Shown: one piece after another, positions 8,416 through 51,434 of the stretch
Layout: each line of letters starts with the position of its first letter
Position numbering within the stretch: the first letter of the stretch is position 1
Assembly (NCBI GenBank): GCA_041651015.1
Contig: JBAZKA010000005.1
Location: forward strand, 1,326 to 65,325
Length of the DNA stretch: 64,000 nt
Direction: 5' to 3'
DNA from: Patescibacteria group bacterium
GTDB lineage: Bacteria > Patescibacteriota > Patescibacteriia > Magasanikbacterales > GWA2-37-8
Notes under the pieces: model-generated
What the model saw: only the letters and a program-made list of their open reading frames with translations
Told to the model about the DNA's origin: nothing
Databases searched by the model: none
Position numbers and translations under genes: made by a program

Positions 8416-8440
8416 GATTGTTGGGTAGTATAATAATTCC

Positions 8441-8472: not shown

Positions 8473-8493
8473 GTATCTAATTTTTTTTTGCGA

Positions 8494-8534
8494 CAAGGGA
8501 TTCCTCCCCGCCCAAGGCGGGTCGGAATGACAAG
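8494..8534. repeat. GC-rich palindromic element copy B (intergenic)
   Basis: caagggattcctccccgcccaaggcgggtcggaatgacaag. This is the reverse-orientation homologue of 20193-20247 and shares the CCGCCCAAGGCGG core. Confidence 0.65.
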
Positions 8535-8589
8535 TTGACATATCGTGTCATCATTTTCATCAAGCAACGCGATTCATCAATTTCATCAT

Positions 8590-10413: not shown

Positions 10414-10573
10414 AAATATAAGTTGTCATGCTGAACTTGTTTCAGCATCTTTTGTCAGATCCTGAAACGAGTTCAGGATGACAGAATAATAAAATTAAAT
10501 GAATAAAACATAAGAAGAAGTATAATTCCGATTCGACTCGCGGAATTAAATAATTTTTGTTAGATCAGTGTCG

Positions 10574-10655
10574 TGCGGACGGAGGGACTCGAACCCTCAA
10601 GGATTGCTCCATACGCTTCTGAGACGTACGCGTATACCAGTTCCGCCACGTCCGC
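10574..10655 (-). tRNA. tRNA-Leu (anticodon CAG)
   Basis: rc = GCGGACGTGGCGGAACTGGTATACGCGTACGTCTCAGAAGCGTATGGAGCAATCCTTGAGGGTTCGAGTCCCTCCGTCCGCA. Acceptor 7 bp, anticodon loop CTCAGAA, long variable arm, T-loop TTCGAGT. No encoded CCA. Confidence 0.8.
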
Positions 10656-10834
10656 GATTTAGTTTATAAAGTTGAAAGTTTGAAAGTTATAAAGTTTGCC
10701 GTTGATACGGCTTGGGTGCGGGAAGTAAATAATCAAGTAATTATAGCATAAAATAGGTGCCTTGTCAATAGCTGGGGAGATTTTTTTGCTGTGGCGGGGC
10801 GTTGCGACTTTATAACTTTATGAACTTTTTAACT

Positions 10835-12784
10835 TTAAAAACTCTTACCCAGCCACCAGCTGGTTTTAGTGTACCAAGAATTTATGTTGTTAAAGCGGTC
10901 GGCTGGAGAATAAATTCTTCCAACGTCAACACCTTGAACTTTTTTGTCTATTAGATATTCATACGTCGGAGAATACAGAAATATCGCCGGAATATCCTTG
11001 GCCAAAATGTCTTGGAATTTTTTGTAATAATCGGCGCGCGCCTCGGTGCTTGAGGCCACGCGGGCGTTTTCAATTAACGCATCAGCGTCTTTGTCCGAAA
11101 ACATCGCCAAGTTTAAGCCAGGGTATTCGGTTTGCGAAGAGTGCCAGAACGGAAATAAATCCGGGTCATCGCCCAAGATTTCGCTGAAGAGTAAAACATC
11201 ATAGGCGCGGCCTTTGAGCGCTTCACGGCTGATTTGTGAACTCGGGATGATAACGACATTGGTTTGTACGCCGACAGCGCGCCAGGCCAAAGCAATGGCT
11301 TCGGCCGCGGTTTCATATTCGGCCGTATCCACGGTCGTCAAATTGACGGAAAGAATTTCATTTTTGGAATTTTTGCGGTAGTAGGTTTGGTCCGGACGCA
11401 TACCGGAGCGCACCAAGTCCTCAGCCTGCTTTTGCAAATCGGCGAGCAAAGTGGTGGAGTTGGTGGCAAAATCCGGTTGAGTTTTCACGTCTGTTTCTTT
11501 TTCTTTTATCATGGCGTCGCGTTTCAAGGCGAAATATTCTTCGGGTGTGAGCCGAGTCCAATTTTTATCTAAAAGGGCGGCTGCCTCGTCAACATTGTAA
11601 GCAATTTTGGCGATATCAGGATGATAGCCAATAAAGTTGGACGGAATGGGAGCGTCTATTACTTCGCCCAGATCGCCCAAAGCCGCGTTCATTATGGTTT
11701 CTTTGTCTATAGCTTTGGCTAGAGCCGTGCGCACCTCCAAATTTTTGAGTGACGCCTTCGCACTTTGGTTAAAAAATATGGCGGTGTATTGGGGCAGGTG
11801 CAATTCGTAACTGTTAAAATTTTTACCGCCGTATGCCTCACTCAGATTGCGTGGTAAAAATGCCAAACCCATAACAACACGGCTTTTAAGTTCATCGGCC
11901 GCCGAAGCCTGGTCGTTATAAAATTTGAAAGAAAGTTTTTTCAAATATGTTTGTTCGCCAAAATAACGAGTGTTGCGTTCCAAAGTATATGTCTCCACAC
12001 CCTCTTCGTTTTTGGTCATTTTGGAAAATTTCCACGGGCCGGAAGTGACTGCCGGCTGTAAATTTTCTTTGGCCAAACGCAAATTGGCGGCCGTGGTCAT
12101 ACTAAATACATGTTCGGGCAAAATACCAACCGAGAGATTGGAGGTGAATGGCGCGAAAGCGTCTTTCAGAGTAAAAGTAATTTCATAGTCGTTGGTTTTT
12201 TCCACAATGACGCCGTTGAAAGCGGTGAAGAGGGGGCTGTTGGTTTCCGGATTTTGGATATATTCAAAAGTGAAGGCCACGTCATCGGCATTAATTTTTT
12301 CGCCGTCAGTCCAATACGCATCTTCGCGTAATTTGACGGTATAAATTTTACCGTCTTCGCTCACGGTATAGCCGGCGGCCAATTCGGGAATTAATTTTTG
12401 GTTCGCGCCGATTTTGAAAAGCCGGGCGTAAAGCAGGGGAGTGATATCCGCGTCAACATCATTGGCTGCGGCGAAAATCGGATTGATAAGTTTGGGTTGC
12501 CCGATCAAAGCCTCGCTGTATTCACCACCGATTTTCGGCGTTGACGATAAATGTTTGGGAACGAAAACAATTCCCCAGACAATCGAGGTCGCGGCGATGA
12601 CGAGGGCGCAAGCGAGAATGGCTATTTTTTCACCCCGGCCGAGAAATCTGCCAAGATAAGATAATTGCCGAAGAGATGGCCAAAAACGCCGGCGCAAGCT
12701 TTTGACCAGTTTTTTATCAAAATCACGAACCAGCGGCCTTGGCTCTTGCCGCAAAATCGGTCGGAAAAATTTTTTCCAATCCAT
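10835..12784 (-). CDS. ABC transporter substrate-binding protein, family 5 (OppA/DppA-like), membrane anchored
   Basis: N-terminal TM. SBP_bac_5 architecture (...DVDADITPLLYARLF..., ...GPWKFSKM...). Confidence 0.8.
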   Translation of the reverse strand: MDWKKFFRPILRQEPRPLVRDFDKKLVKSLRRRFWPSLRQLSYLGRFLGRGEKIAILACALVIAATSIVWGIVFVPKHLSSTPKIGGEYSEALIGQPKLINPIFAAANDVDADITPLLYARLFKIGANQKLIPELAAGYTVSEDGKIYTVKLREDAYWTDGEKINADDVAFTFEYIQNPETNSPLFTAFNGVIVEKTNDYEITFTLKDAFAPFTSNLSVGILPEHVFSMTTAANLRLAKENLQPAVTSGPWKFSKMTKNEEGVETYTLERNTRYFGEQTYLKKLSFKFYNDQASAADELKSRVVMGLAFLPRNLSEAYGGKNFNSYELHLPQYTAIFFNQSAKASLKNLEVRTALAKAIDKETIMNAALGDLGEVIDAPIPSNFIGYHPDIAKIAYNVDEAAALLDKNWTRLTPEEYFALKRDAMIKEKETDVKTQPDFATNSTTLLADLQKQAEDLVRSGMRPDQTYYRKNSKNEILSVNLTTVDTAEYETAAEAIALAWRAVGVQTNVVIIPSSQISREALKGRAYDVLLFSEILGDDPDLFPFWHSSQTEYPGLNLAMFSDKDADALIENARVASSTEARADYYKKFQDILAKDIPAIFLYSPTYEYLIDKKVQGVDVGRIYSPADRFNNINSWYTKTSWWLGKSF

Positions 12785-37496: not shown

Positions 37497-38171
37497 ATGG
37501 ACGAACCGCAAAACCGTTTTAGCAAAGAGCAGAAAATCGGCTTGGTTTTGCTGTCTTCTTTTGTCGTACTGGCGGTGACGCTCGGGTTGATTGAAATGCG
37601 TAATACCTTGTATAGTCCGTTTGCTTTGAATAATTCCATTCCGGCTATGATTGGGAGTGATGTGGATACGACCGACGCGTTGCGTTATCGTGATACCGAT
37701 GCTGACGGCCTGAATGATTTTGACGAATTATATGTTTATTCCACCAGCCCGTATTTGGCTGATACTGATTCGGACGGCTTGACCGACAAGCAAGAAGTTG
37801 AAGGTGGTAAAAATCCCAATTGCGCCGAAGGCAAAGATTGCAATGCGTCAATCGCGGAAAACGGTTCGGCCATAATCGCCACCAGTTCCACTGATGTGGC
37901 CGATACCAACACACTGTTTTCAAATTATGATGTGACATCAACCTTGGAAGCCATGCTCACTTCGCCGGATCAGATGAGAACTCTTTTGCTTGAATCCGGT
38001 TTGGCGCAATCAGTGGTGGATAAAATTTCCGATGATGATCTGACCAAAATGGCGTTGGAGATAATGTCTTCATCTACCATCTTGGATAGTATGGAAACCA
38101 CTTCCACTACAGTATCTGATGTGACGACCACGGCGAAATTTATCAATCAACTAATGAATGCTTCGCAATAA
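37497..38171 (+). CDS. Membrane-anchored protein with thrombospondin-type-3-like Ca-binding repeats
   Basis: N-terminal TM. DTDADGLNDFDE / DTDSDGLTDKQE repeats. Its 3' end overlaps the start of the giant gene. Confidence 0.55.
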   Translation: MDEPQNRFSKEQKIGLVLLSSFVVLAVTLGLIEMRNTLYSPFALNNSIPAMIGSDVDTTDALRYRDTDADGLNDFDELYVYSTSPYLADTDSDGLTDKQEVEGGKNPNCAEGKDCNASIAENGSAIIATSSTDVADTNTLFSNYDVTSTLEAMLTSPDQMRTLLLESGLAQSVVDKISDDDLTKMALEIMSSSTILDSMETTSTTVSDVTTTAKFINQLMNASQ

Positions 38172-41100
38172 TCAGCGCTTTATGTTTTTTAACACAAAAA
38201 AATTTGGTTTGAGCGCGATACTTTCAATCTTTGTATTTGTGACCATTTTCGGTTCATTATTTTTTGCGCCGCGTCCGGCGCGAGCACAAATGGACGCAAA
38301 TATTACAAATGCATTCAGGGCATGGCAAGTCAAAGGTACGGTTCAAGAAGTCAAACAAACTCTCAAAGAGAAAGCCCAGTTCATGTTTATGACCGCGCTC
38401 ATGAACGGCTTAAATTATTTTGCCAATAAAATCGCTTATGATATGGGCGTTTGGCTGGCCTCGGGTGATTGGGGTCAAGGGCCGTTTTCCAGCGGAAAAA
38501 GTTTTGGCAGTTATATGGCTCAAGTAGCCGGCGATTCGCTCGGTGAAATGCTTGGCTCACTCAGCGAAGATTTGGGTTTGAATCTCTGCGACTTGCCGGA
38601 TTTGCGTTTGGATTTGGCTCTGCAACTCGGTTTTCATTTTGCGTATAATGAACCAAAGCCGAAATGTTCATGGCAACAACTCCGTGCGGCCTATAATCCG
38701 GAAAATGTTTACAGCAAATATGCTAGTCGCGAGGGCTTGGCCGATAGAATCGGTTTGGGTGTGAATGTCAAAGACACTGATATGGGTATTTGGTTTAAAT
38801 CCAAAGAAACAATTGACGCTTATACCGAAGAACAAGTGGCCGGCGCTTCGGGCGAGGATGCGCGCGGCGAGGGTATCAGCGCCATGACGGAAATTATTTC
38901 CGGCAAACAAGTTACTCCGGCCGCTGCCATGAAACAAGAAATGCTGGCACAAACTCCATCCAAACAGCAAGAAGGGCGCGCGGCTGATACTCGTTCCATG
39001 ACCAATGCCGCTTTGCAAAAAGGCGCGACCACGGTGGCGCTCAACGCAGTCAGTACTTTTGTAAATACTTTACTGGGCACGGTGGTAAATAATTTTGTTA
39101 CCAAAGGCATGTTGCCGGGCGGAAAAACAATTTGCAACCCGGGACTCAGTATTACCGGCGTGGGTTGGAACCAATGCGCTGATTCTGATTCCTCCGACAC
39201 GCTTGCCGCAAATTATTACACCTCTGGTTCGGAAACGGACAACCGCCGGGCGGCTCAAGAATTATTTTCAGAATTGCTCGCGCCGAAAATTACTACTTTG
39301 GAAAATTATGATTTGGCCACCAATATGGCCGAGTGTTCCGAGGATAATAAATCTCCGGACGCCTGCGTGATTGATCAGTCATTCATGCAAATTTTACAGC
39401 AGGCTGATTTGGGTGACGCACTCACCATCAAGCAAGCGATGGAACGCGGACTTTTGCACGGCGATTGGAAATTAATATCCCCGAACAATGCCGAGGAAAC
39501 CGATAAATGGACTTGCGCCGAAGAAGCTTATTGTTATCGCAACATTAAATTTTTACGCCAAGCCAGAATTTTGCCGGTCGGATTTGAAATGGCCGCTTAT
39601 ATCGCCAATGCGTCCACTCCGCCGAGTTTGTCCGATGTGGTGAATGGTTTTTATGATGAATCAAGCGCGTATTATCATTTGATCAATCCACAGTGGGTAA
39701 TCAAAATGCCCAAAATGCGTTGCGCTTCGTATGCTTACGGCGCCGTGGCCCAAGACGGTGTGCGCGTGCAGGAATGTGTGGATTTGCAACATTGCGTCGG
39801 CTACAACAAAGACGGCACCTGCCAATCATGGGGTTATTGTATGAAAGAAAAACCGGTTTGGAAATTTGATGCCGGTTATTGCGATTCAATTTATAGTACT
39901 TGCAAAGCTTTCACCGGCGCAGACGGCGACGCTTCATACCTTACTCGCACATTGGACACCACTGAATGCAATTCAGATAATGTTGGTTGCGCCAGATATT
40001 CGCGCGACAAATATTATGTAAATTCATCAACCGTGGATTGGTATTCGCAGTTGGCCGTATATAATGCCACTGATGAAACTTTTACCAACACCGGAATTCA
40101 TTTTAATAAATCAGTTTCCACTTGCTCGGCCGAAAATGACGGGTGCAGCGCGTTCAAATTAGCGAGTGACAACTCCACTTTATTGTATCTCAAAAAGGCG
40201 CCGGATTATCTGGGTTGCTATGATGCCGACCCGTCAACCGCCGCCAATTCTTTAGCCTTGCTCAACAAAAAAATCTCCAACGGCGTCCAGTGGCCGATGA
40301 CTTTATCCGGCTTGAATTTGATTCAACCGCAAGACAAAAAAGCCTGCGCCAATTACGCGCAAGTTTGTTTGCCCGAAGAAGTAAATTGTAATTATTACAC
40401 GGCTTCATACACCGGCGAGAAAATTCCGGCCAAGTTTACTCCGGCAGTCGTGAGCGACGGCCTGGTGACTTGGAATGATCAATGCGACGCAGTCTGCAAC
40501 GGTTATGCCGCCTACCAAGAAATGCCGAGTAATTATTCCAGCGGGCAAAATTTATCATATATAATACCTTCGTCTGGAAATTCTTGCATTGCTTCGCAAT
40601 CCGGCTGTACCGCTTTTACCAATTTGAATGCCAACTCGGGCGGGATGGAACAAAAAGAATATTTTTCTTATCTGCGCCTCTGCGCTTTGCCTGATCAGAC
40701 CAAGCAAAAAAATTATACTGTTTACGAAAGTTCGGAATCCGGCGGTTATTCCATCAAGACTTACACCCTGGTAAAAAATGACAGCAACAACGGACCCAAA
40801 CAAATTTTCCGCGATGCCGACGAGTATGCCGAGTTAGCCCCGTTATGTTCTCAAACGGCTTATGAAGCCGGCACGGCTGATCCGGATTGTCATCAATTTA
40901 TCGGCGATGATGCCTCCAAATATTACGCGTTTTTATCCAAGACAATTATCGCGACCGACCAATGCACGCCATATCGTCTAAGTTCCCCGGAGCTAATAGC
41001 GTTAACCTCAACCGATTTGCGTTGCGCTTATGATTACGATTATTACGGCGTTGATCGCCGTGCCGGTTCTTCCACCGTGGAATTCAAGAGCAATGCCTGT

Positions 41101-44100
41101 TATTACATGGGCACGACCGTCGGTACCAATGGCGCGGGCGATACGCGCACCTGCAATTCTAATGTTGAATCCTGTCGCGCTTACAAAGGCAATGCCGGCA
41201 ACAACGTCAGATTATTATTAAATGAAGATTTTGAAAATGCCGATTTGACGAATTGGGGTGTGTCGGCCAGTTCCGCGTCCACTGTCACTATTGCCACTTC
41301 CACCGAGTCCACGCAAATTGATGGGCATTCTTTACGCGTGAATGTGAAGACGAATTCTAGTGCAGCCACGGCTTACGCGCAATTAAACGGCCTTCCCGTG
41401 ACCAAAGGTAAAGCTTACACCATATCATTTTGGGCCAAAGGCAGTGCGGCTCTGAAAAGTGTTAGTTTGGCGAGCGCGGATTTTGAAGGTTCGTTTACCG
41501 ACAGCGAAATTAATTCGTCCGATGTTTGGAAATATTATTCCTTCGGTCCGCTAAATTACAACGGCAGCGCGACTACTTCGATTTTATATTTACCTTTGAG
41601 TGCGACCGGCGGCGCGACCCAACAATTATTTATAGACAACATCCGCTTGACCGAGGTGGCTGATTATATATATTTGGTAAAAAATTCTTTGAGCGTCAAT
41701 GCGCTGTGCGACAGTGATACCTCGGATAATTTGCCGGGCGAGGCACTGGGTTGCACGGCTTATTCTGATCCGCTCAAAAATATGTTTTATCTCACCGGCT
41801 TTAATTATCTTTGCCGTGAAGCCGCAGTTGGCTGTACGGCCGTGCTGGACACCTACAACACGCCGGATGATCCCAATGCGCAAGCTTATAATGTTTGGAT
41901 TGCCGGCGCCTCAGGCGGTACCGCATCTGCTACTGTGGGCGGGGAAACATTTACTTGCCAAGTACCGACCGGCGAGACCGGATGTTATACCGATATAATG
42001 GGTTATACGGCGGCACAATTGGTGGCGGCCGGTAATGTTCACTTGACCAGTTCCACAATTTATATTCCGCCGGACACCACCACCTCCACCCCGATTTATT
42101 TGGTAGCCAATCAAAGCGCGACATGCAAAGCGGAAAATTTAGGTTGCGAAGTTTTGGGCAAATCAACGGTGAGTGCCAGCGGATTATCCTATAAGGTGGA
42201 TGGCATTCTGGTAGTCCATTACGAAACATTTGAAGAGACGGCCGTATTAAATAATCCCGCGCTTTATAGCGATACATTGTGTAAAAACGAAGAAGCCGGT
42301 TGCAGCGCGTGGACCTCGGGCGACAGCTCATATTATTTCAAAAAACCAAACGCCACCTGCACATACAAAACAGATAAATTTATTTCCATTGAGCCTCCGG
42401 CCGCCGGCGTGGAAATTAAATCAGTAAATCTAAAAGCCAATTCCATTGGCTGGGTGATGCAGGACACGGGCATTTGCGTGCGAAACGAACTTTCTTCTTA
42501 TGGAATTGTTGGTAGTTCCATCTTTGGTATTGGCGGTTTTATACTTAATTCAGGGTCCCATTACATGGGCCGATACTGCGCTACTGATGCCGATTGTGTT
42601 ATCGGCACCTCTACCGGTACCTGCAAATATGTCAATCAAGTGCCGTGTTATCCGGCTTCAAGAAAACCGAGCGGGGAATATCAATTATGGTCATCGGGTA
42701 ATCCTGTCAAATACTATAATTACGTCGGCACATGTCCACAAGAGCAATCCGGTTGCACCGAGTATGTTGATCATAGTTCATCTGATAATAACGTCTGCGC
42801 CATGACCGGCGAAGTCTGCACTGATGATAGCGATTGTGAGACAGAGGGTGATACTTGCGTGGCAAATGAGGATAGCGCGTATTATTTAATTGATAATGAA
42901 AAACTTCAAGCGCAAGAAGCGGCCTGTAATGGCCAGGTCAGCCAAGCCGAAGGTTGCGCCCTGTTGGACAATACCAATAATCCCAATAAATATTGGAACA
43001 CAACTTCATCATATGCGTTATCAACAAGCAATGATGAAAATTTGGTGACCCCGGTTGATAAAGGCAATGCCAATGATGCTAACACAATTTTAAAAGTCAA
43101 ACACGATCGCGAATGCGCCGAGTGGGCGTATTGTGATTTTAAACAAACATATGTTGATTCGGAAACCAATGAAACCGCTTCGCGCTGTTATCATTTGGGC
43201 GTATGCCAGCAAGCAAGCTCGGCGGTTGGAGTTAGCGGCCGATGCGCGGAAGGTGGCGTAGTGACTGGTAGTTGGCTTGGTAAAGACAAAGTGCTTGATA
43301 AAAATTACTATCAATCCCTTTATTCATCGTGGGATTCAATTGATTTGTCCGGATATTCCATACCTTTTACGTATCAAATACCTGATTTAAGAGTGCGTAA
43401 TGTTGATGATACTAATCGTTTGGTTTATGTGACCACGACCGCATTATGCACTGACGAGACTGATAACGGCAGTGCATGCGGCTCGGGTGGTGCTTGTTAT
43501 AACGGAGAATGCTTATTTAATTATATAGGTCCGGGAAATTCCGTCACTTCGTCACGAAGTATATCTTGTCGCAGCTATCCTGAAGACTCCAGTCCGTTTT
43601 CCACCAGCGTATTGAGTGACAATACGGTTTGGGGCGATGGCGGATCGTCTGGCGGACATTTAATGTCAGCAATATACAAAACCGGTTTTGAAAACACGAA
43701 TTTGTGTTATGATGATTCGGGCGAACTCACCAACAATAAATGTGATTGTAGCTATGATAAATTTCAAACATCGGGTGGGGATATCTTTACTCAGGTCGGA
43801 CGCTCCACCGCTTCGGGCTATGTTTGCTCGGGCGGATCATATAATGGCAAAGATTGCGACGGTTCGGATGATATAGATACCTGTGGCACTGGTGGGACGT
43901 GTTCAAAAGTAAATTCCGTATCAGTCATGACCGGTTGGCAAGGATATTGCATGGAAAAAGATTTACGTCAGACTATAAATGGTACAAGCAATCATCGTTG
44001 TCTTACATGGTGGCCGCTTGAGCTTGCTCCGGGAACTTCAGATATTTGGGCGACTGATCCGAGCGCCGGTTATGAAGTGGGTGAGACCGACGATCGGTAT

Positions 44101-46341
44101 ATGTGTTTGATTAATGCGCCGACCAACAGAAAGCGCTCCACTGCTTATCCTACTTTTAATATGGGAGGTGCCTCAATGCAGGCGGACTGGGGAAATTCCA
44201 CGGGTAGTCTTCAAGGTCCGAATGGTGAGGCGATTCTTTATTCCGGCTCAGCGACTGTTGTTTATAATTCTTTGGAAAATAGCATCGTCACCGGATGTTG
44301 GGACACGAGTGCTAATGCGTTTGATGCTATTTGGGGGTTGTCTATGTCAGATGGAGACGATTCGCAAGGTAAATATTGTCCAATAAATAAAAATACATTG
44401 AAAGAAGCCGGGTCAAATCTCGCTCGGATCAGTTTGCCGGTCGGGCAGACATATTTGCAGAGGAATGATATTGAGAGAATAGATGTTTATCTTGATAAAC
44501 GGTACTCTGGCGACGGTGGTGATGGTGCTGGTTGTAGTGACGGTTGGGTGAGTTTTTACAATGATTTACTTGACGAGAACGAGGATCAATCTTTTATCGT
44601 TAAAGAATGGTTTAGACCGGGTTGTACAAATTCAAGCTGGAGAAAAAAGAGTTTTGGTAGTACCCCTTATTCATTATTAACCGACTGGTATTCGTGGCAA
44701 TGGGAAGGGGGCAATCTCGACGGAGATGGTAATTGGGTTAAAGATAGCAGTATTGTGTACAATCTACAAAACGATACCTATGCGTCCATAACACAAAACA
44801 ATGATTCAGGCAATGGCACTGGTATTCGGATTATATTTGATTCCAAAAATAATTTCAGAGGTATCTGGGTTGATGGCGAAGATAACGCGTCTGGTAGTAC
44901 CGATATGGGATTTTTCTTTGTCATTACTCTACGTGATGGTCGTTGCGCGGAACAATTGCAAATTTCCGATGAAGATGATGAATATTTTGGTTTTAAACCA
45001 TTTACCGGAAGACTAGCACTTGGAGACTTATCTGTCGGTGGAGACTGGGCGGAGTTTGGATTGTCTGCCACTCGCACCAAAGAGATGGATAACCCAAATT
45101 ATGGTTTAAATAGTGATAGCTCACCGCGCACTCTTATCAATCCATTTGTTACGTTATTGGGCAAGTATGGTGCTAACGCCCACAGTCCGCAGGGTATCTC
45201 CGATCCAGATACGGCCATGACAATTCACGCTTCAGATTATGACGCCGGTGTGCCGTTGAGCGTAATGAGGGTGCAAGATGCACCAGCAAGCGAGTACGCG
45301 AGATTTTATGTTGAAAAAGTTAGTGACTGTGCGGCGAACCCGGGTGCACCATATTGTCAGATGCTTAAGCGAATGTTTGCTCGAGTTTATTCGGATAGAT
45401 TGCTGGTGCGCGTGTCGGACGGTGTTTACGCGTTCAAAGATGATCCGACGACATCCGATGGTACAATAGTGGTAAAAAACGGGACATCGGTAGATGACTT
45501 TGACTCTACTGCCGACGCTGCCAATCCGGCAACCGCAAAGACATTAAAATTAATTCTTTATCCGCCACGTGTGGCGGCTCCAACATCTGCCGGTTACGAG
45601 ATAGATGCAGTTGCAGTTAACGGACAAACATCCGGCAATGTGTACTTGGCATCTGGTGCGACTGCGGCGATTCAATTTTACGCGTGGGCTTCACCCAACC
45701 AAATGCCACTGCGCCGTGTCGCGGTCAGAAAAGGCGATGGCACGGATCCAGTAGCGGTTGAGAGCGAAAGTTTAAGTAATAAAAAACCGTCATGCAATAC
45801 AAAATTTTGTGATTGCAATCGCAATACGGGTACAGGTGGAGATGAATTTTGTATTCAGGACCTTAGTGAATTGATGCCTTGTAGTAATGATAGTGATTGC
45901 GACGGATTAACGAACAACACCGTATGCTCAGGCTCTTCCGCCTCCGGTTATACGACCTTTGGCTCGACTTCGGACACCGGCTGCAAAGCCGAACCCTATG
46001 ATTTCATTGTGGATTATTCTTGCCCAATGGGTGGCAGTGAAGGAGCAAAAGTTTATCCATCATCCGCCTCCACCTACGGCATAAATTGGAACACAGACAT
46101 TGTCGCCAATTTCGGTGATGTTCCTTACGTTTGCGCCTTCCAACCCAAAGTTCAGGTGTTGGATAATTGGGGTTGGTGCACTAGTCGAGCGCCAGGTACA
46201 AACGGTGGATGTAATTATTCTTCAAATGAATATGTGAATGGATACGGGTGTTATGCGGAGGATGTATATGATTATTGCGCTTTAAGTAAATCACAACCGT
46301 GGGTACTATATGGTGGTTACGTGGTCGTAGTGCCAATGTAA
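38158..46341 (+). CDS. Giant (2727 aa) Cys-rich extracellular/surface protein with polymorphic C-terminal module
   Basis: Uninterrupted 8.2-kb ORF. N-terminal signal/anchor (FGLSAILSIFVFVTIFGSLFFAP). Hundreds of Cys spaced as in disulfide-rich repeats. The C-terminal 125 aa are homologous to the downstream orphan ORF 47885-48259. Confidence 0.85.
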   Translation: MLRNNQRFMFFNTKKFGLSAILSIFVFVTIFGSLFFAPRPARAQMDANITNAFRAWQVKGTVQEVKQTLKEKAQFMFMTALMNGLNYFANKIAYDMGVWLASGDWGQGPFSSGKSFGSYMAQVAGDSLGEMLGSLSEDLGLNLCDLPDLRLDLALQLGFHFAYNEPKPKCSWQQLRAAYNPENVYSKYASREGLADRIGLGVNVKDTDMGIWFKSKETIDAYTEEQVAGASGEDARGEGISAMTEIISGKQVTPAAAMKQEMLAQTPSKQQEGRAADTRSMTNAALQKGATTVALNAVSTFVNTLLGTVVNNFVTKGMLPGGKTICNPGLSITGVGWNQCADSDSSDTLAANYYTSGSETDNRRAAQELFSELLAPKITTLENYDLATNMAECSEDNKSPDACVIDQSFMQILQQADLGDALTIKQAMERGLLHGDWKLISPNNAEETDKWTCAEEAYCYRNIKFLRQARILPVGFEMAAYIANASTPPSLSDVVNGFYDESSAYYHLINPQWVIKMPKMRCASYAYGAVAQDGVRVQECVDLQHCVGYNKDGTCQSWGYCMKEKPVWKFDAGYCDSIYSTCKAFTGADGDASYLTRTLDTTECNSDNVGCARYSRDKYYVNSSTVDWYSQLAVYNATDETFTNTGIHFNKSVSTCSAENDGCSAFKLASDNSTLLYLKKAPDYLGCYDADPSTAANSLALLNKKISNGVQWPMTLSGLNLIQPQDKKACANYAQVCLPEEVNCNYYTASYTGEKIPAKFTPAVVSDGLVTWNDQCDAVCNGYAAYQEMPSNYSSGQNLSYIIPSSGNSCIASQSGCTAFTNLNANSGGMEQKEYFSYLRLCALPDQTKQKNYTVYESSESGGYSIKTYTLVKNDSNNGPKQIFRDADEYAELAPLCSQTAYEAGTADPDCHQFIGDDASKYYAFLSKTIIATDQCTPYRLSSPELIALTSTDLRCAYDYDYYGVDRRAGSSTVEFKSNACYYMGTTVGTNGAGDTRTCNSNVESCRAYKGNAGNNVRLLLNEDFENADLTNWGVSASSASTVTIATSTESTQIDGHSLRVNVKTNSSAATAYAQLNGLPVTKGKAYTISFWAKGSAALKSVSLASADFEGSFTDSEINSSDVWKYYSFGPLNYNGSATTSILYLPLSATGGATQQLFIDNIRLTEVADYIYLVKNSLSVNALCDSDTSDNLPGEALGCTAYSDPLKNMFYLTGFNYLCREAAVGCTAVLDTYNTPDDPNAQAYNVWIAGASGGTASATVGGETFTCQVPTGETGCYTDIMGYTAAQLVAAGNVHLTSSTIYIPPDTTTSTPIYLVANQSATCKAENLGCEVLGKSTVSASGLSYKVDGILVVHYETFEETAVLNNPALYSDTLCKNEEAGCSAWTSGDSSYYFKKPNATCTYKTDKFISIEPPAAGVEIKSVNLKANSIGWVMQDTGICVRNELSSYGIVGSSIFGIGGFILNSGSHYMGRYCATDADCVIGTSTGTCKYVNQVPCYPASRKPSGEYQLWSSGNPVKYYNYVGTCPQEQSGCTEYVDHSSSDNNVCAMTGEVCTDDSDCETEGDTCVANEDSAYYLIDNEKLQAQEAACNGQVSQAEGCALLDNTNNPNKYWNTTSSYALSTSNDENLVTPVDKGNANDANTILKVKHDRECAEWAYCDFKQTYVDSETNETASRCYHLGVCQQASSAVGVSGRCAEGGVVTGSWLGKDKVLDKNYYQSLYSSWDSIDLSGYSIPFTYQIPDLRVRNVDDTNRLVYVTTTALCTDETDNGSACGSGGACYNGECLFNYIGPGNSVTSSRSISCRSYPEDSSPFSTSVLSDNTVWGDGGSSGGHLMSAIYKTGFENTNLCYDDSGELTNNKCDCSYDKFQTSGGDIFTQVGRSTASGYVCSGGSYNGKDCDGSDDIDTCGTGGTCSKVNSVSVMTGWQGYCMEKDLRQTINGTSNHRCLTWWPLELAPGTSDIWATDPSAGYEVGETDDRYMCLINAPTNRKRSTAYPTFNMGGASMQADWGNSTGSLQGPNGEAILYSGSATVVYNSLENSIVTGCWDTSANAFDAIWGLSMSDGDDSQGKYCPINKNTLKEAGSNLARISLPVGQTYLQRNDIERIDVYLDKRYSGDGGDGAGCSDGWVSFYNDLLDENEDQSFIVKEWFRPGCTNSSWRKKSFGSTPYSLLTDWYSWQWEGGNLDGDGNWVKDSSIVYNLQNDTYASITQNNDSGNGTGIRIIFDSKNNFRGIWVDGEDNASGSTDMGFFFVITLRDGRCAEQLQISDEDDEYFGFKPFTGRLALGDLSVGGDWAEFGLSATRTKEMDNPNYGLNSDSSPRTLINPFVTLLGKYGANAHSPQGISDPDTAMTIHASDYDAGVPLSVMRVQDAPASEYARFYVEKVSDCAANPGAPYCQMLKRMFARVYSDRLLVRVSDGVYAFKDDPTTSDGTIVVKNGTSVDDFDSTADAANPATAKTLKLILYPPRVAAPTSAGYEIDAVAVNGQTSGNVYLASGATAAIQFYAWASPNQMPLRRVAVRKGDGTDPVAVESESLSNKKPSCNTKFCDCNRNTGTGGDEFCIQDLSELMPCSNDSDCDGLTNNTVCSGSSASGYTTFGSTSDTGCKAEPYDFIVDYSCPMGGSEGAKVYPSSASTYGINWNTDIVANFGDVPYVCAFQPKVQVLDNWGWCTSRAPGTNGGCNYSSNEYVNGYGCYAEDVYDYCALSKSQPWVLYGGYVVVVPM

Positions 46342-46378
46342 ACAAATGATCAATGATTGAGGTAAAAAACGAATTAAC

Positions 46379-46410
46379 CCACGCAAGAAATTGCGTGGGT
46401 TTGGTTTTTG
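46379..46410. terminator. Terminator (member of a repeated terminator family)
   Basis: cccacgcaagaaattgcgtgggtttggttttt. Near-identical unit at 48291-48323. Confidence 0.7.
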
Positions 46411-46460: not shown

Positions 46461-47003
46461 TTATGGCTGGTAACGAATGAGCGAATCTGCAATATCGTCA
46501 TTCACAACGATGTCAATTGAGTCTGAAGCCGCGTGGTAGATGATGCAAATCGTAGAGGTACTGCTAGAATAACAGACAGACGTACCAGTACCGACGAAAA
46601 CGACTTCCGAATTGATTGGGCAGCTGTCCTCTTCCCACGGTAGATCAGCGTGATCGGTTTCACATTGATCGTCCGGAAATTCCGTGGTAAAAACACAACC
46701 CAAGGAGGTGTTGTCTTGTCCAACCCACGTATCCGCAAAGAAGTCGCCGGTCTGGTTGCACGCTTCCTCGGCCTCGGTATCCGTCTCCGTATCCGCGTCG
46801 GTGTCGGAGTCGCTGTCGGAATCACTGTCGGAATCGGTATCCGTATCCGTATCGGAATCCGAGTCGGAATCACTGTCGGAATCGGTATCCGTATCCGTAT
46901 CGGAATCCGAATCCGCGGAACCGCCGTCATCACCACAGGCGGTGATGAACGAGAACAAGGAAATGATGGTGATGAGAATCGCGAACCGATAAAATTTTTC
47001 CAT
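46461..47003 (-). CDS. Lipoprotein with (DS/DT)n acidic repeat linker and Cys-containing C-terminal domain
   Basis: GGAGGGTACC-ATG. Lipobox FITAC. SADSDSDTDTDTDSDSDSDSD... repeat. Paralogue of 48384-48947. Candidate immunity partner of the upstream C-terminal module (inference). Confidence 0.6.
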   Translation of the reverse strand: MEKFYRFAILITIISLFSFITACGDDGGSADSDSDTDTDTDSDSDSDSDSDTDTDTDSDSDSDSDSDTDADTETDTEAEEACNQTGDFFADTWVGQDNTSLGCVFTTEFPDDQCETDHADLPWEEDSCPINSEVVFVGTGTSVCYSSSTSTICIIYHAASDSIDIVVNDDIADSLIRYQP

Positions 47004-47295
47004 GGTACCCTCCCCATTGCCAACCCATCGGGCCGGCGTCAATCCGCGAGCTGACCGAAGTCAAAGCGCGGACTTTGTTGCGAACCTTTTTTGTTTCGCC
47101 CCCTCATGGGGCAGAGAAGCGCGGCCTAACGAAATGACAAATTTCCAATTTCCAATGTCAAATCAATGCCAAAATCCAAACGTCAAATTTTTAAATTTTG
47201 AGCTTTGGATTTGATTGAATATTTGTCATTGGATATTTGACATTAAGCAACACTTTTCTACCTCATAAGAAAGGCGTCTAATCCTACCTGTATTG

Positions 47296-47420
47296 TAAAG
47301 AGCGGTTTTTGGCCGACATTCGGCCTCTATTTCTATTTTAACCCATTTTCGTGGGTAAAACAAGATATAATAGCACGTTTTGGGGGATTTGTCAAGAGGG
47401 GGCGGGTGTGATAGTATAAT
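47296..47420 (+). promoter_or_regulatory. About 120-bp conserved promoter repeat (copy 1) driving hicBA
   Basis: ctattttaacccattttcgtgggtaaaacaagatataatagcacgttttgggggatttgtcaag is almost identical to 49195-49262. TTGTCA -35-like, TAGTATAAT -10-like. Confidence 0.6.
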
Positions 47421-47446
47421 GATAGCTAAATAATAATTTTATATCT

Positions 47447-47704
47447 ATGCGTCGGAATAAACTAAATTACAACCTAATTTTTCGTCCTGAACCGGAGGGT
47501 GGTTTTACCGTAGTTGTTCCATCATTACCTGGCTGCATTACCTATGGTAAAAGCCTTGAAGAAGCGCGCAAAGCGGCGGCAGACGCTATTCGTGGATATG
47601 TCGCCAGCCTAAAAAAACATCATGAATACCTCCCGACTGACGAAGCTAATTTTATATCCTCTTTTGATTTAGAAATATCCAAGCCATATGCCGCGCGCGC
47701 CTAG
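47447..47704 (+). CDS. hicB: HicB-family antitoxin
   Basis: IFRPEPEGGFTVVVPSLPGCITYGKSLEEARKAAADAI matches the HicB/UPF0150 fold. Confidence 0.8.
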   Translation: MRRNKLNYNLIFRPEPEGGFTVVVPSLPGCITYGKSLEEARKAAADAIRGYVASLKKHHEYLPTDEANFISSFDLEISKPYAARA

Positions 47705-47888
47705 GCTAACGGCCAAACAAATTATTAAAATGTTAAAAGAAAATGGTTTTGTATTAGACCATGCTTCCGGTAGTCATTATATTTTTTATCATCCGGTATC
47801 TCACAAACGAGTGACAGTGCCATATCATTCTAGGACACTCCCGATGGGCACACTAAAAAGTATTTTGCGAGCGGCAGAGTTGAATTGA
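47688..47888 (+). CDS. hicA: HicA-family mRNA interferase toxin
   Basis: KQIIKMLKENGFVLDHASGSHYIFYHP...RVTVPYHSRTLPMGTLKSILRAAEL. Overlaps hicB. Confidence 0.8.
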   Translation: MPRAPRLTAKQIIKMLKENGFVLDHASGSHYIFYHPVSHKRVTVPYHSRTLPMGTLKSILRAAELN

Positions 47889-48259
47889 ATTTTTCCCAAC
47901 TTTCCTTCGGCTCCACCGCCGACACCGGCTGTAAGAGTAGGCCGTTGGAATTTATCACTGATTACAACTGTCCGTCGGCCGCGGCAAATATAGTTGGTTG
48001 GGACACTTCAGGTTATGGTATTGATTGGAATTATATCGCCGCCAATTACGGTCATCCGACTTATGTTTGCGCCTTCAAACCAAAAGTTCAAGTGTTGGAT
48101 AATTGGGGTTGGTGCACGGGGAGTTGTACCAATGATGACGACGTGGTGAAGGGGAATGGGTGTTATTCAGAATCAGACACTGGAGACCAATGTAAAACAT
48201 CCTATACTAAACCATGGGTCAATTACGATGGATATATCGTTGTAGTGCCAGTGTTGTAA
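47885..48259 (+). other. Orphan C-terminal module (no ATG; TTG at the junction) homologous to the giant protein's C-terminus
   Basis: (TTG)NFSQLSFGSTADTGCKSRPLEFITDYNCP...YVCAFKPKVQVLDNWGWCTG...YIVVVPVL versus giant C-terminus FGSTSDTGCKAEPYDFIVDYSCP...YVCAFQPKVQVLDNWGWCTS...YVVVVPM. About 90% nucleotide identity across tatgtttgcgccttcaaaccaaaagttcaagtgttggataattggggttggtgcac. Confidence 0.75.
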
Positions 48260-48290
48260 AATATAAATTACGTAGATAATAAAAAATAAA

Positions 48291-48323
48291 CCCTCGCAAG
48301 AAATTGCGGGGGTTTGGTTTTTT
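48291..48323. terminator. Terminator (second copy of repeated terminator)
   Basis: ccctcgcaagaaattgcgggggtttggtttttt. Confidence 0.7.
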
Positions 48324-48383
48324 GTGGAGCAAAGGCTCCGAGGTAGGATTGTTGTGCCGGCCAAGAGTTGGCCGACAGCGGGG

Positions 48384-48947
48384 TTAACAGCCGCAACGGA
48401 CGTAGGTCGTGCCATCAGTTTCTCCGTCATCCACGGAGTACTGTTGACGGAAACCACCGTCACTGTCAACGTAAAATTCCATTGTGGTTGATGTGTTAGC
48501 GTCGTACTCGCTATACGGCAATGCAGTCATATCTACTGTTCCGGTTGCGACAGCACCGTCACCGGAAAAAGTCACTTGACACGTGGTCACCGCGTATGTT
48601 AGGACGGTGTTGAGAATGTAGTCGGAGTCGCAACAATGATTTTCAGCGTACATATCGCCCTCAATGTCCACGCATCCCTCGGCATCCGATGTGCCGTTGA
48701 GGCAATCGCACGAAGTGTCGGCATCCGTGTCCGTGTCGGTATCCGAGTCGCTGTCCGAATCGGTATCGGTATCCGTATCCGAGTCGCTGTCGGAATCCGA
48801 ATCCGTGTCACTGTCGCTGTCCGAATCGGCATCGGTGTCCGAATCCGCAGAGGAACCGCCGTCGTCACCACAAGCGGTGACAAACGTGGAGAGGGAGGCC
48901 ATCATGACGATGGCCATGATCGCGAACAAATTCGCCAGCTTCGTCAT
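48384..48947 (-). CDS. Lipoprotein paralogue with (DS/DT)n acidic repeat linker and divergent Cys-rich C-terminal domain
   Basis: AAGGAAG-ATG. Lipobox FVTAC. SSADSDTDADSDSDSDTDSDSD... repeat. C-terminal domain differs from 46461-47003. Confidence 0.6.
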   Translation of the reverse strand: MTKLANLFAIMAIVMMASLSTFVTACGDDGGSSADSDTDADSDSDSDTDSDSDSDSDTDTDTDSDSDSDTDTDTDADTSCDCLNGTSDAEGCVDIEGDMYAENHCCDSDYILNTVLTYAVTTCQVTFSGDGAVATGTVDMTALPYSEYDANTSTTMEFYVDSDGGFRQQYSVDDGETDGTTYVRCGC

Positions 48948-49129: not shown

Positions 49130-49286
49130 ACCTGCCCCGACCTAAATGCGTCGGGGCCTATATTGTAAAGAGCAGGTTTTGCCATTAAATGGCCTATATT
49201 TCTATTTTAACCCATTTTCGTGGGTAAAACAAGATATATTAGCACGTTTTGGGGGATTTGTCAAGCCCCCTGCTGTGTGATATGAT
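49130..49286 (+). promoter_or_regulatory. About 120-bp conserved promoter repeat (copy 2) driving mnt-hepT
   Basis: Same repeat as 47296-47420. TTGTCA (49258-49263), 17-nt spacer, TATGAT (49281-49286), then GGGAGGG SD and ATG 49313. Confidence 0.65.
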
Positions 49287-49312: not shown

Positions 49313-49600
49313 ATGACTGCTACGCAAAAACAAATTAAAAGTGCTGTCTTACCCATATTAAAAAAATACGGTGTTTTAAAGTCTGCGCTTTTCGGATCGT
49401 TTGCCTCCGGTGAACAAAATAAAAAAAGTGATGTGGATATTTTAGTAAAGATGCCTCGCGGCAGTAGCTTGTTTGAATTGGTGGATTTACGTGTTGAGTT
49501 AAAAGATAAATTAAAACGTGATGTGGATCTTGTCACATATGAGTCAGTGCACCCTCGGCTTAAAGATAAAATTGCGGCATCATCCACCAGTATCTTATGA
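49313..49600 (+). CDS. Nucleotidyltransferase-family antitoxin (MntA-like)
   Basis: ALFGSFASGEQNKKSDVDILV minimal NTase motif (GS...DxD). Confidence 0.8.
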   Translation: MTATQKQIKSAVLPILKKYGVLKSALFGSFASGEQNKKSDVDILVKMPRGSSLFELVDLRVELKDKLKRDVDLVTYESVHPRLKDKIAASSTSIL

Positions 49601-49962
49601 AGAAAGATAAAGACACACAAGTATTTATTGAACATATTTTAGATTCCATTGAAGCGATTGAAAAATATATCGCCAATATGCCGTTTGAAGACTTTGCTAA
49701 AAATGGTTTAACTCAAGACGGCGTTTTCCGACGGCTGGAAATCATCGGTGAAGCGGTCAAAAATATACCCATAAGTTTTAGAAAAAATTATCCGGATATT
49801 CCTTGGCGAAAAATTGCCGGCATGCGCGATTTTTTAATTCATGAATATTTTGGGGTAGATATTAGATTGGTTTTTGAAACGGCAAGCGGGCGTTTACCAA
49901 AATTTAAACAACAAATTTTGGAAATTAAGTTTTCCGAACCGGCCTTGAAACTAAGGAAGTGA
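49597..49962 (+). CDS. HepT-like HEPN toxin (DUF86)
   Basis: R-x4-HxY motif (MRDFLIHEY). Overlaps mnt by 4 nt. Confidence 0.8.
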   Translation: MKKDKDTQVFIEHILDSIEAIEKYIANMPFEDFAKNGLTQDGVFRRLEIIGEAVKNIPISFRKNYPDIPWRKIAGMRDFLIHEYFGVDIRLVFETASGRLPKFKQQILEIKFSEPALKLRK

Positions 49963-50264
49963 ATATTCGGTCATTATTAAGTTATTTTTCCTTCGGTTCC
50001 ACCGCCGACACCGGCTGTAAGGAAGAACCACTGAGCGAAATTGCTGGACTTGAATTAGATGAAAATACGTTAGATGATTTGGATAAAATTAATGAATTTA
50101 ATATTCGCGCCAGATACCCGGATTATAAAAATGAATTTTATAAAAAATGCGATAAGAAATATGCGAATAAATATTTGGTAATCATCAAAAAAATTTATTT
50201 AAATTTATGTCAAGGCTTGAAGCAAAAAAATAGTCAAAAAATACGCGGAAGTATTGAAAGATAA
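49959..50264 (+). other. Orphan C-terminal module 3: conserved junction (SFGSTADTGCKEEP) fused to a HEPN-like fragment; GTG start overlapping the hepT stop
   Basis: Nucleotides tccttcggttccaccgccgacaccggctgtaag are identical to the 47903-47935 junction. The downstream part (NEFNIRARYPDYKNEFYKKCDKKYANKYLVIIKKIYLNL) carries a HEPN-type (A)RYPD signature. Confidence 0.6.
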
Positions 50265-50520
50265 CAAATTTCCTTTTTTCGCGATTTATCTTTTCGGTTC
50301 GCACGCCAAAAATCACGCGAGTCGTTGGAGCGATATTGATGTGGCGGTAATCACCGATCGTTTAAACAGAGATAATGATACGGCGAGATTTGACTTAAGA
50401 AAATATCGCCGTGCTGTTGATGTGCGCATTGAGCCGCATGGTTTTAACGTAAAAGATTTTGCGGTTGCCGCTGATCCGTTGGTGCATGAGATTAAGAAGA
50501 CGGGGATACGCATTGTTTAA
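50254..50520 (+). CDS. Nucleotidyltransferase-domain protein (MNT-like), TTG start, possibly N-terminally truncated
   Basis: IYLFGSHAKNHASRWSDIDVAV (GS..DxD). No in-frame ATG after the upstream stop. Partner of the HEPN-like orphan. Confidence 0.5.
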   Translation: MKDNKFPFFAIYLFGSHAKNHASRWSDIDVAVITDRLNRDNDTARFDLRKYRRAVDVRIEPHGFNVKDFAVAADPLVHEIKKTGIRIV

Positions 50521-50656: not shown

Positions 50657-51187
50657 TTACCATGAGATGTGGATTATGGCAAGATCAGGGTCATGACCTA
50701 TTATTTCATTCTGATAATAGGAGTCACTAGCGGGACAAAACTTTATTTCCACCCCCAGCCCCCTTGATTTGATATCAGAAATCACGAGATTGAGTTCATT
50801 ACTGGCTACAAGTGTACGTCCGCCCCAGAGACGTTCTTCCACGCTGTACCACGGTAGCCGATAATTGCTCTCAAAATGAGCTATGGAGAAAATCTCGCTG
50901 TGCGTGAACACTTTAATATCATTATTTTCATAACTTTTTTTACGAACCGGGTCGCTTCTATCCATAATGACAAATGAATTTTTATCTTCCTTGGCAACTT
51001 TTGTAGCTATTTCCATAATTGCCGCGACATATTTATCCGCTTGTCTTTTGATAAATTCCGGCGAGCTTGTAATGCGGCGTAATTCATCAGCCGCTTTTTC
51101 CTCTAGAAATTTACGTTGCTCATTTTCTTGCCGTGCTTGGCGCATCAGATCGTGGAGCTGCGTGGCTGTTTTGATTTTTTCATTCAT
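50657..51187 (-). CDS. Hypothetical protein (176 aa)
   Basis: Start at MNEKIKTATQ (GGAGG-ATG at 51187). Confidence 0.5.
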   Translation of the reverse strand: MNEKIKTATQLHDLMRQARQENEQRKFLEEKAADELRRITSSPEFIKRQADKYVAAIMEIATKVAKEDKNSFVIMDRSDPVRKKSYENNDIKVFTHSEIFSIAHFESNYRLPWYSVEERLWGGRTLVASNELNLVISDIKSRGLGVEIKFCPASDSYYQNEIIGHDPDLAIIHISW

Positions 51188-51434
51188 GGGAGCCTCCTCA
51201 TGCAAATAGATGCTGTTTTGATACAAAAAATTGTCAAAGAAGTTAACTATATCAATTGAGTATATTGAAGCATAAAACAGTAGTGCGGTCAAGTATAATA
51301 AGGGGAAAAGTTCGGTGGCATTATTAGTTAAAACGCCTTTACCTATTGTGGATAAATCCCAATACTTTTAAACTTTGTCTTGCCGCGTCCTTTGTGCTAT
51401 AATAACATCATAAACGTAAGCCCGATTCGGCTTT

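Follow-up and report, generated by a model that had tools for sequence, protein, structure and literature searches.

The C-terminal domain of a stalked lipoprotein encoded tail-to-tail with a giant surface protein is exchanged together with the end of that protein's tip in Magasanikbacteria

We analysed a 64,000-nucleotide (nt) stretch of DNA from a Patescibacteria group bacterium (NCBI GenBank assembly GCA_041651015.1, contig JBAZKA010000005.1, positions 1,326 to 65,325), hereafter the window. In it two lipoprotein genes, lipo1 and lipo2, follow the C-terminal tip of a giant surface protein and an orphan copy of that tip. The original prediction, made from the DNA letters, had proposed the lipoproteins as candidate immunity proteins for the tips. 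Our analysis revealed that lipo1 and lipo2 represent, in this genome, a partner gene found tail-to-tail with the giant gene in most related loci; almost all of these loci come from metagenome-assembled genomes of Magasanikbacteria. The end of the tip and the C-terminal domain (C-domain) of the lipoprotein form a single contiguous module that is inherited and exchanged as a whole, the breakpoints lying in conserved islands. The lipoprotein is predicted to be a tip-matched protective or exclusion-type surface protein, a reading to which we assign a probability of roughly 40%. The features of this arrangement are as follows (aa, amino acids; D-S/D-T, Asp-Ser/Asp-Thr).

38158-46341, plus strand: giant surface protein gene, 2727 aa, with an N-terminal signal or anchor and one CBM_4_9 domain
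45958-46341, plus strand: tip 1, ~128 aa from the junction motif FGSTSDTGCK to the stop, with the DNWGWC core at 46159 and the terminal strand GYVVVVPM
46376-46401: bidirectional hairpin terminator between tip 1 and lipo1; a second copy lies at 48287-48316 (repeat 87%)
46461-47003, minus strand: lipo1, 180 aa, with a signal peptide (aa 1-22) and lipobox Cys23
46776-46934 and 46464-46775, minus strand: D-S/D-T linker of lipo1 and its type A C-domain with 6 Cys
47885-48259, plus strand: orphan tip 2, with homology from 47906 (FGSTADTGCK), lacking a signal peptide and a body of its own
48384-48947, minus strand: lipo2, 187 aa, with a signal peptide and lipobox Cys26
48723-48869 and 48387-48722, minus strand: D-S/D-T linker of lipo2 and its type B C-domain with 8 Cys

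A tip profile run against one genome per GTDB species yielded 70 related loci, almost all from Magasanikbacteria, and a metagenome scan added 80 more. The loci nearest to that of the window are labelled Candidatus Magasanikbacteria, and lipo2 is 100% identical to NCBI WC457_04275; the metagenome scan returned no close relatives of the window's own cassettes. We searched behind each tip for a convergent open reading frame (ORF) of at least 80 aa with a hydrophobic run and a lipobox-like Cys, ending no more than 700 nt from the tip stop. Such an ORF was found behind 123 of 141 evaluable tips (87%), with a median gap of 131 nt and a median length of 186 aa, compared with 30 of 253 random positions in the same loci (12%). 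Several of the misses are truncations or failures of the detector (e.g. L006 and L009). The corresponding gaps in the window are 119 nt (tip 1 to lipo1) and 124 nt (tip 2 to lipo2). The convergent orientation, which the original prediction had considered atypical for immunity genes, is instead the conserved arrangement. It makes the two variable C-termini contiguous and places them in one recombination cassette.

Homology searches with the C-domains gave the same picture. Among 1.84 billion representative proteins the lipo1 C-domain has no more than 2 relatives, and a profile of the lipo2 type recovers only lipoproteins of 163-189 aa; the genuine matches of the first search were lipoproteins of 183-227 aa. 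The seven homologues with usable context (P0004, P0006, P0008, P0009, P0012, P0130 and P0138) are all convergent with a giant gene and 95-162 nt behind it. Five of these giant genes are complete (2408-2946 aa, or two adjacent ORFs) and two are cut by the contig end. All seven homologues stand behind giant genes and no broad set of tip-less homologues was found; the lipoproteins are genuine partners of the tips.

Comparisons of close relatives show which part of the locus is exchanged. In L038 and L077 the flanks are 97-100% identical over 3.9 kb, and the lipoprotein signal peptide and linker are 100% identical. Divergence is confined to one patch, in which nt identity is 53-60% in the tip after DNWGWC, 92% in the terminator and 58-73% over the ~70 final codons of the lipoprotein. 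This contrast is beyond what point mutation would give and points to allelic replacement. The nearest relatives of the two modules lie elsewhere, in L112 for L077 (0.73/0.64) and in cassette 2 of L026 for L038 (0.63/0.74). L119 is likewise a mosaic; its tip N-terminal part (N-part) resembles that of L055 and L131 (0.94-0.95), and its tip end and lipoprotein C-domain are nearest to those of L054 (0.79/0.57). L074 and L075 show the complementary case: identity is only 33-84% over ~4.3 kb of the giant gene, as far as about DNWGWC, yet complete in the last ~37 aa of the tip and throughout the lipoprotein. Between L002 and L003, nucleotide similarity of 84% ends exactly at the end of the lipoprotein linker, beyond which the C-domains are of type B (L002) and type A (L003); in this pair the giant protein is mosaic over its last ~870 aa.

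The same pattern was seen across larger samples. In six close-lineage pairs with tip N-part identity of at least 0.93, which represent nine loci because three are shared between pairs, the tip end (0.38-0.70) and the lipoprotein C-domain (0.30-0.76) had both diverged in every pair. Conversely, 14 pairs with similar C-domains and dissimilar signal peptides have a mean tip-end identity of 0.59, compared with a background of 0.33 (95th percentile 0.46). Their mean tip N-part identity is 0.39 against a background of 0.24, and these 14 pairs are not independent of one another. In the nearest clade, whole-tip identity groups the tips by lineage (FGST or FGNT) and not by lipoprotein type A or B, and the signal appears only after the tip is split at DNWGWC. 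For the original prediction that C-domain divergence tracks that of the tips, a real signal was obtained at the strain level, as co-replacement of the post-DNWGWC end and the C-domain, a pattern that linkage alone could also explain; the prediction fails for whole tips in the nearest clade and in the exceptions described below for L026 and for L002 and L003.

The variable zone extends further into the giant protein. Its C-terminal 870-1450 aa are mosaic, with 20-84% identity, between otherwise identical strains in which the N-terminal half is identical (L074/L075, positions 6750-11050; L002/L003). The distal part of the giant protein is itself hypervariable at the population level.

Both lipoproteins were confirmed as minus-strand ORFs with lipoboxes, D-S/D-T linkers and divergent Cys-containing C-domains. 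lipo1 starts at an ATG (MEKFY...) at 47003, and the listed ORF reaches a TTG at 47042. Its leader peptide reads MEKFYR followed by AILITIISLFSF, and that of lipo2 reads MTK followed by LANLFAIMAIVMMASLSTF. The n-regions are basic (K3 and R6 in lipo1, K3 in lipo2) and the h-regions are uncharged, hydrophobic and 15-19 residues long. The lipoboxes F-I-T-A-C23 and F-V-T-A-C26 agree with the [LVI][ASTVI][GAS]C pattern of Lgt/LspA substrates, in which the Cys lies at the end of the signal peptide, within ~15-35 residues of the start. The Cys is followed in both proteins by GDDGG and then by ~50 residues of D-S/D-T dipeptides, which are coded by tandem repeats of 6, 12, 24 and 48 nt. The C-domains that follow are ~104 aa (lipo1) and ~112 aa (lipo2). 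Judged from these sequences, lipo1 and lipo2 are Sec/lipobox-type lipoproteins that consist of a lipid anchor, an acidic stalk and a Cys-containing C-domain. General scans of ~30 window ORFs gave no Lgt or LspA match, and no search aimed at these enzymes was made. The N-terminal architecture, described earlier as identical, is shared as a design but not as a sequence. BLASTP aligns only the signal peptides (39% over 28 aa), and the two C-domains have no detectable similarity.

In 103 unique lipoproteins, acidic residues make up 27% and basic residues 3% of the 50 positions that follow the Cys, and 72% of this stretch is low-complexity; a pure D-S/D-T linker is limited to the closest relatives of the window. 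In the window the linkers match the SD-repeat regions of ClfA, ClfB, SdrC and SdrD with E = 1e-8 to 1e-11; the scores of 22-41 bits against cut-offs of 999-2500 make these matches compositional only. An N-terminus made of a lipobox, CGDD and a long D-S/D-T repeat is widespread in lipoproteins of Myxococcota and Deltaproteobacteria (match list P0010-P0120), where it is fused to varied C-domains (DUF1566/Lcl, FGE-sulfatase, hydrolases). This N-terminus looks like a general-purpose stalk module common to distant phyla.

An AlphaFold2 (AF2) model of the lipo2 C-domain, built from a 19-sequence alignment, has a predicted local distance difference test score (pLDDT) of 86.8 and a predicted TM-score (pTM) of 0.76, and displays eight β strands after a short helix. 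Neither C-domain matches Pfam or NCBIfam, including the LanI and MliC/PliC families and any toxin family. Searches of PDB sequences with the C-domains, the tips and the giant protein found nothing significant (best E = 0.06). The lipoprotein has no meaningful match in BFVD, and CBM_4_9 (Pfam) is the sole Pfam/NCBIfam match of the giant protein. Many C-domains that are otherwise unalignable share the loose pattern C..L..I.G.W ... T(L/V)T ... C.V ... LP(L). BLAST grouping of 52 C-domains gave one 14-member cluster and many singletons, indicating that the lipoprotein partner is far more diverse than the tip.

Most full-length matches of the lipoproteins come from Myxococcota or Deltaproteobacteria through the D-S/D-T linker, as might be expected if the pair were non-functional, consisting of spurious low-complexity ORFs or of contaminant Myxococcota-like genes. 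Such an artefact is hardly credible. The ORFs are intact and carry a lipobox, a ribosome-binding site and a promoter-like site, homologues of the C-domains occur only in Patescibacteria loci of the same synteny, and the AF2 fold is confident. The ~1000 full-length matches outside the genuine set, mostly Myxococcota and Deltaproteobacteria lipoproteins with unrelated catalytic or DUF1566 domains, align in the linker only. Contamination or horizontal transfer from Myxococcota was rejected because the matches are confined to the linker and the C-domain homologues lie in Patescibacteria synteny.

The tips themselves are a conserved family. Tips 1 and 2 are 53% identical over 129 aa (E = 6e-41), and the terminal β strand, G-x-I/V-V-V-P, is invariant among tips. 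The junction motif FG[SN]TxDTGCK, which precedes a replaceable C-terminal piece, occurs three times in the window, and the breakpoints lie at DNWGWC. Homologues of the giant gene in Magasanikbacteria loci encode 2400-2950 aa. In L001/L007, a complete-looking Magasanikbacteria genome, the giant gene is called as two ORFs and the tip (10739-11338) is apparently frameshifted near its end, which reads ...GYGCYYEAGSSGIIISVIITIKANHG... and not PWVNY.GY.VVVP. The cause is either an error in sequencing or pseudogenisation of the tip beside an intact lipoprotein.

A number of observations weigh against a protective role of the lipoprotein. The tip has no Pfam, NCBIfam, toxin-family or PDB match, and its AF2 model, built from a 7-sequence alignment, has a pLDDT of 43 and is unusable, so that its fold tells nothing about toxicity. 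All tips are homologous to one another, unlike the unrelated C-terminal (CT) domains of polymorphic toxins. The original prediction is partly supported: the lipoproteins stand as tip partners, and the toxicity of the tip is unsupported. Covariation at the species level is weak (Mantel r = 0.30, partial r = 0.18; Spearman 0.06). Pairing is not strict, since tips 2 and 3 of L026 have identical ends and unrelated lipoprotein C-domains, and the tip ends of L002 and L003 are 67% identical next to unrelated lipoproteins (type B and type A). The best PDB fold matches of the lipo2 C-domain model are calycins of the CRABP2/FABP group, and they are weak (Foldseek E ~0.01, TMq ~0.47); the model is suggestive of a calycin-like domain and does not assign a fold. 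Finally, joint exchange is what a cognate pair predicts, but linkage of adjacent DNA alone could give the same pattern.

Some of these points would also be expected if the lipoprotein were an independent, stalk-displayed polymorphic adhesin or antigen that is under the same outside pressure as the tip (host surface, phage or predators) and is linked to it only by adjacency in a recombination hot spot. The SD-like stalk is a known device of adhesins, and polymorphic surface proteins typically combine a constant N-terminus with non-homologous C-domains. The variable zone also spans 870-1450 aa of the giant protein, and the identical tip ends of L026 with different lipoproteins and the weak species-level covariation fit equally well. 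However, the tail-to-tail position is kept in 87% of evaluable tips in more than 100 related loci, which exceeds what a hot spot needs. The breakpoints repeatedly bracket exactly the tip end and the lipoprotein C-domain, and orphan cassettes always pair a tip with a lipoprotein. We therefore consider an independent ligand rather unlikely.

The organization of the window into cassettes provided further information. A repeat search and a nucleotide alignment of cassette 1 with cassette 2 showed a duplicated unit, at a spacing of ~1.9 kb, that consists of the junction, tip, terminator, lipoprotein, leader and promoter. Identity between the two copies is 0.58 in the junction, 0.74-0.78 in the DNWGWC core of the tip, 0.66-0.74 in the last tip strand and the hairpin terminator, 0.2-0.46 (random level) in the lipoprotein C-domain, 0.66-0.76 in the linker and signal peptide, and at random level in the leader. 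The promoters, spacers and the third junction are located as follows.

47322-47396 and 49191-49265, minus strand: 75-nt element ~360 nt upstream of each lipoprotein start, the two copies 97% identical
47367-47395, minus strand: lipo1 promoter-like site, TTGACA-17-TATTAT with TG, 11/12, ~360 nt upstream of the ATG
49236-49264, minus strand: lipo2 promoter-like site, TTGACA-17-TAATAT with TG, 10/12
47447-47888, plus strand: HicB-HicA toxin-antitoxin (TA) pair occupying the spacer between the cassettes; the HicA stop overlaps the orphan tip ORF
49313-49962, plus strand: MNT (nucleotidyltransferase)-HepT TA pair occupying the next spacer
49987-50021, plus strand: third junction, FGSTADTGCK, 97% identical to the second junction

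The 75-nt element holds the region's two best sigma-70-like sites, on the minus strand, and a weaker divergent site. Downstream of its promoter-like site are a 5' hairpin (ACCCACGAAAATGGGT) and the motif TAAAATA..AATAGA. The promoter-like site and the leader start are conserved in relatives (L001 9593-9629, L002 9597-9633, L003 9616-9652, L145 1166-1202). Each lipoprotein of the window is encoded by an intact ORF that has its own ribosome-binding site and strong promoter-like site, so both look independently expressed, and only one tip is joined to an exported body. The leaders, 320-450 nt long, may be regulatory; they have no Rfam match, and a riboswitch or other known RNA was rejected because Rfam returned only sub-threshold noise. 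The lipo1 leader contains a ~110-nt imperfect palindrome (47137-47247; minimum free energy -29.4 kcal/mol, z = -2.3), which is missing from the lipo2 leader and could be an inserted miniature element or an attenuator.

Three TA-type units lie exactly in the spacers between the cassettes: HicB-HicA, MNT-HepT, and a HEPN fragment with a nucleotidyltransferase (NTase) at 49959-50520. HicB-HicA and MNT-HepT end right before the orphan junctions. Orphan tip 2 starts on a TTG that overlaps the hicA stop, and the HepT stop overlaps the tip 3 ORF. Behind the third junction a HEPN C-terminal fragment takes the place of the tip and is followed by the NTase (50254-50520), and there is no lipoprotein; this region is a decayed cassette. 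In the chimeric ORF 49959-50264 the junction FGSTADTGCKEE leads directly into the C-terminal part of HEPN (Pfam HEPN, E = 4.5e-4), and the ORF looks like the scar of a tip replaced by the HEPN/NTase unit. Elsewhere the spacer position holds IS200-like, NYN-like or MNT-like genes, as judged by eye. The window, with two cassettes and a stub, is one of several arrays; L026 has three cassettes and L133 and L142 have two tips each. In L026, which belongs to a distant low-GC lineage, the three lipoproteins have a signal peptide and an acidic D/E/P/Q linker in common but different C-domains, the orphan tips start at PRVQVLDNWGWC, and the spacers are filled by AAA_14+DUF4143 ATPases. TA pairs in the window and ATPases in L026 suggest that selfish or defence-type genes accumulate between cassettes.

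Two known routes to variation were rejected. For a shufflon or invertase switch, the scanned ORFs include no recombinase, inverted-repeat crossover sites were not found, and the cassettes are repeated in direct orientation. For a diversity-generating retroelement, no reverse transcriptase was found among the ~30 scanned window ORFs (those left of 19440 were outside the scan), and the mismatches between tips 1 and 2 are not A-biased.

We propose the following mechanism for the predicted protective role. The module of tip end and lipoprotein C-domain is flanked by conserved islands, the junction and DNWGWC on one side and the linker, signal peptide and promoter on the other, and is replaced as a whole, apparently by homologous recombination. 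Cassettes that were displaced or stored pile up downstream with TA or ATPase genes between them. The D-S/D-T stalk probably projects the C-domain across the wall and out to the cell surface, as staphylococcal SD repeats do. There the C-domain may attach to the distal tip of the giant protein, either the cell's own or a sibling's, and so neutralise it, or it may mask a structure on the producer that the tip recognises. Engagement of self or kin would thus be prevented, which in the terms of the original prediction would be immunity, and the tip need not be an enzyme toxin.

The conserved pairing and the co-replacement would also suit a docking, anchoring or maturation partner, in which the C-domain binds the tip, for example at its terminal strand, and tethers, folds or holds the giant protein until it is deployed, with specificity pairs co-evolving as in cohesin-dockerin or in tail fibres and their chaperones. 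Both products are extracytoplasmic, and the invariant terminal strand of the tip and an open β domain in the lipoprotein would permit strand addition. There is, however, no obvious reason why an anchor should be hypervariable or give way to non-homologous domains, and the stalk, which probably reaches no more than ~20 nm, is short for a 2700-aa protein. Stored cassettes also retain strong promoter-like sites for lipoproteins whose tips are not expressed. Docking is thus distinctly unlikely in our view. Protection is favoured over it because every stored lipoprotein of the window appears expressible with only one tip deployed, and because non-homologous domains have taken the place of the partner domain time and again while the tip fold stayed conserved. 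The diversity of the C-domains fits repeated independent solutions to the binding of one conserved fold.

The diversity of the lipoprotein could instead mean that it is itself a polymorphic effector, SitA-like in having a constant leader and a variable C-terminal payload, that is delivered or presented by the giant protein. A constant N-terminus with unrelated C-domains matches the design of polymorphic effectors better than the tip does. The C-domains, at ~100 aa with disulfides and a calycin-like β structure, do not look enzymatic, have no toxin family match and, apart from the TA pairs, have no candidate immunity gene next to them. An effector is accordingly an improbable identity for the lipoprotein.

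The protective reading can be compared with several known systems. In the polymorphic toxins CdiA-CT/CdiI and Rhs-CT/RhsI, tips are marked by a junction and matched by a cognate partner, orphan arrays occur and alleles are replaced. The window resembles them in having a large exported protein with a junction-marked C-terminal piece, an adjacent small partner gene, downstream arrays of promoterless orphan tips with intact partner genes, and allelic replacement by recombination. It differs from them in that the tips are all homologous and belong to no toxin family, and in that the partner is convergent (123/141) and not co-directional, is an exported, stalked lipoprotein and not a cytoplasmic protein, and is more diverse than the tip. 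The variable unit also comprises the C-termini of both genes.

In phage T5, a lipoprotein, Llp, whose gene adjoins that of the receptor-binding protein pb5 and which matches the specificity of that tip, prevents engagement of the producer (PMC9586334). T5 pb5/Llp, Cor and the lipoproteins downstream of gpJ are similar to the window in layout only, a small lipoprotein being encoded beside a tip gene. Llp differs from the window lipoproteins in that it acts on the receptor FhuA and not on the tip, has ~60 aa and no stalk, and belongs to a phage and not to a cell. Family scans and the BFVD structure search found no sequence or fold relation between Llp or Cor and the window lipoproteins. The orphan CT-immunity arrays of polymorphic toxins and T5 pb5/Llp are the closest functional analogies.

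Staphylococcal SD-repeat stalks project a domain through the wall. ClfA, ClfB and SdrC/D resemble lipo1 and lipo2 in having long D-S repeats between the anchor and the functional domain. The window proteins have an N-terminal lipid anchor and not a C-terminal LPXTG, and their repeats mix D-T with D-S; the combination of A-domain and LPXTG that marks MSCRAMMs was not found. LanI (NisI/SpaI) and MliC/PliC are, like lipo2, lipid-anchored β-rich proteins, and they intercept envelope-acting agents outside the cytoplasm. MliC is an 8-stranded β-barrel lipoprotein. The window proteins have no sequence match to these families, and the fold of lipo2 is instead closest, weakly, to the FABP/CRABP calycins. 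Alternative adhesin tips beside a type IV secretion or tail apparatus are also found in the R64 PilV shufflon and in the Mu G segment (Sv-U/Sv'-U'), and in Mu the tips are swapped together with a cognate small partner gene. Unlike these, the window has direct-repeat cassettes with no site-specific recombinase or inverted repeats found, and exchange apparently takes place by homologous recombination or allelic replacement.

Several neighbouring genes complete the locus. Upstream, a 224-aa protein with thrombospondin type 3-like Asp-rich repeats (37497-38171; weak NCBIfam MtsD match) overlaps the start of the giant gene by 14 nt, and L001 has a 228-aa TSP3_bac protein in the same place; it is probably a third conserved member of the locus. 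Downstream, a 211-aa ORF on the minus strand (50657-51292), with no family match and no lipoprotein features, is convergent to the NTase. It lies between the decayed third cassette and the gene of a 1074-aa membrane protein that precedes type IV secretion-like genes. These secretion-like neighbours comprise a large membrane protein (weak match to a mobilome membrane-protein model), PrgI, a weak TraC-like protein and a P-loop TraG/DUF87 ATPase. They flank the giant gene and lipoprotein pair in the window, L002 and L003 and are absent from other loci, which have aspS or valS instead. Since they are not constant, the invariant association is that of the giant gene and the lipoprotein.

In the literature we found no description of a giant-tip/stalked-lipoprotein pair. 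Replaceable C-terminal tips with partner genes and orphan arrays are an already known theme; the tail-to-tail layout that fuses two variable C-termini, the stalked lipoprotein partner and the taxon are new. We put forward, as a possible and still tentative interpretation, that Magasanikbacteria have a previously undescribed two-gene surface recognition or exclusion module, in which the genes lie tail-to-tail, one tract swaps both, arrays serve as a reservoir, and the outcome decides which cells, host or kin, are engaged and which are spared. If so, the convergent layout would amount to a novel way of holding a cognate pair together.

Little is known about how ultrasmall Patescibacteria recognise particular cells, attach to them and spare them, and a survey of their type IV secretion loci reported no adhesins (PMC12102498). 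The locus described here is a concrete, testable candidate. It joins a Magasanikbacteria-wide giant surface protein, a hypervariable distal part and a matched lipoprotein that strains and lineages exchange along with the tip end. If the two proteins indeed form a recognition and protection couple, they would offer a genetic way into host range or kin discrimination in this uncultured group, and the tip end together with the lipoprotein type could serve as a marker in strain-level population studies. The couple would also be an example of gene orientation keeping two interacting variable domains in one recombination unit.

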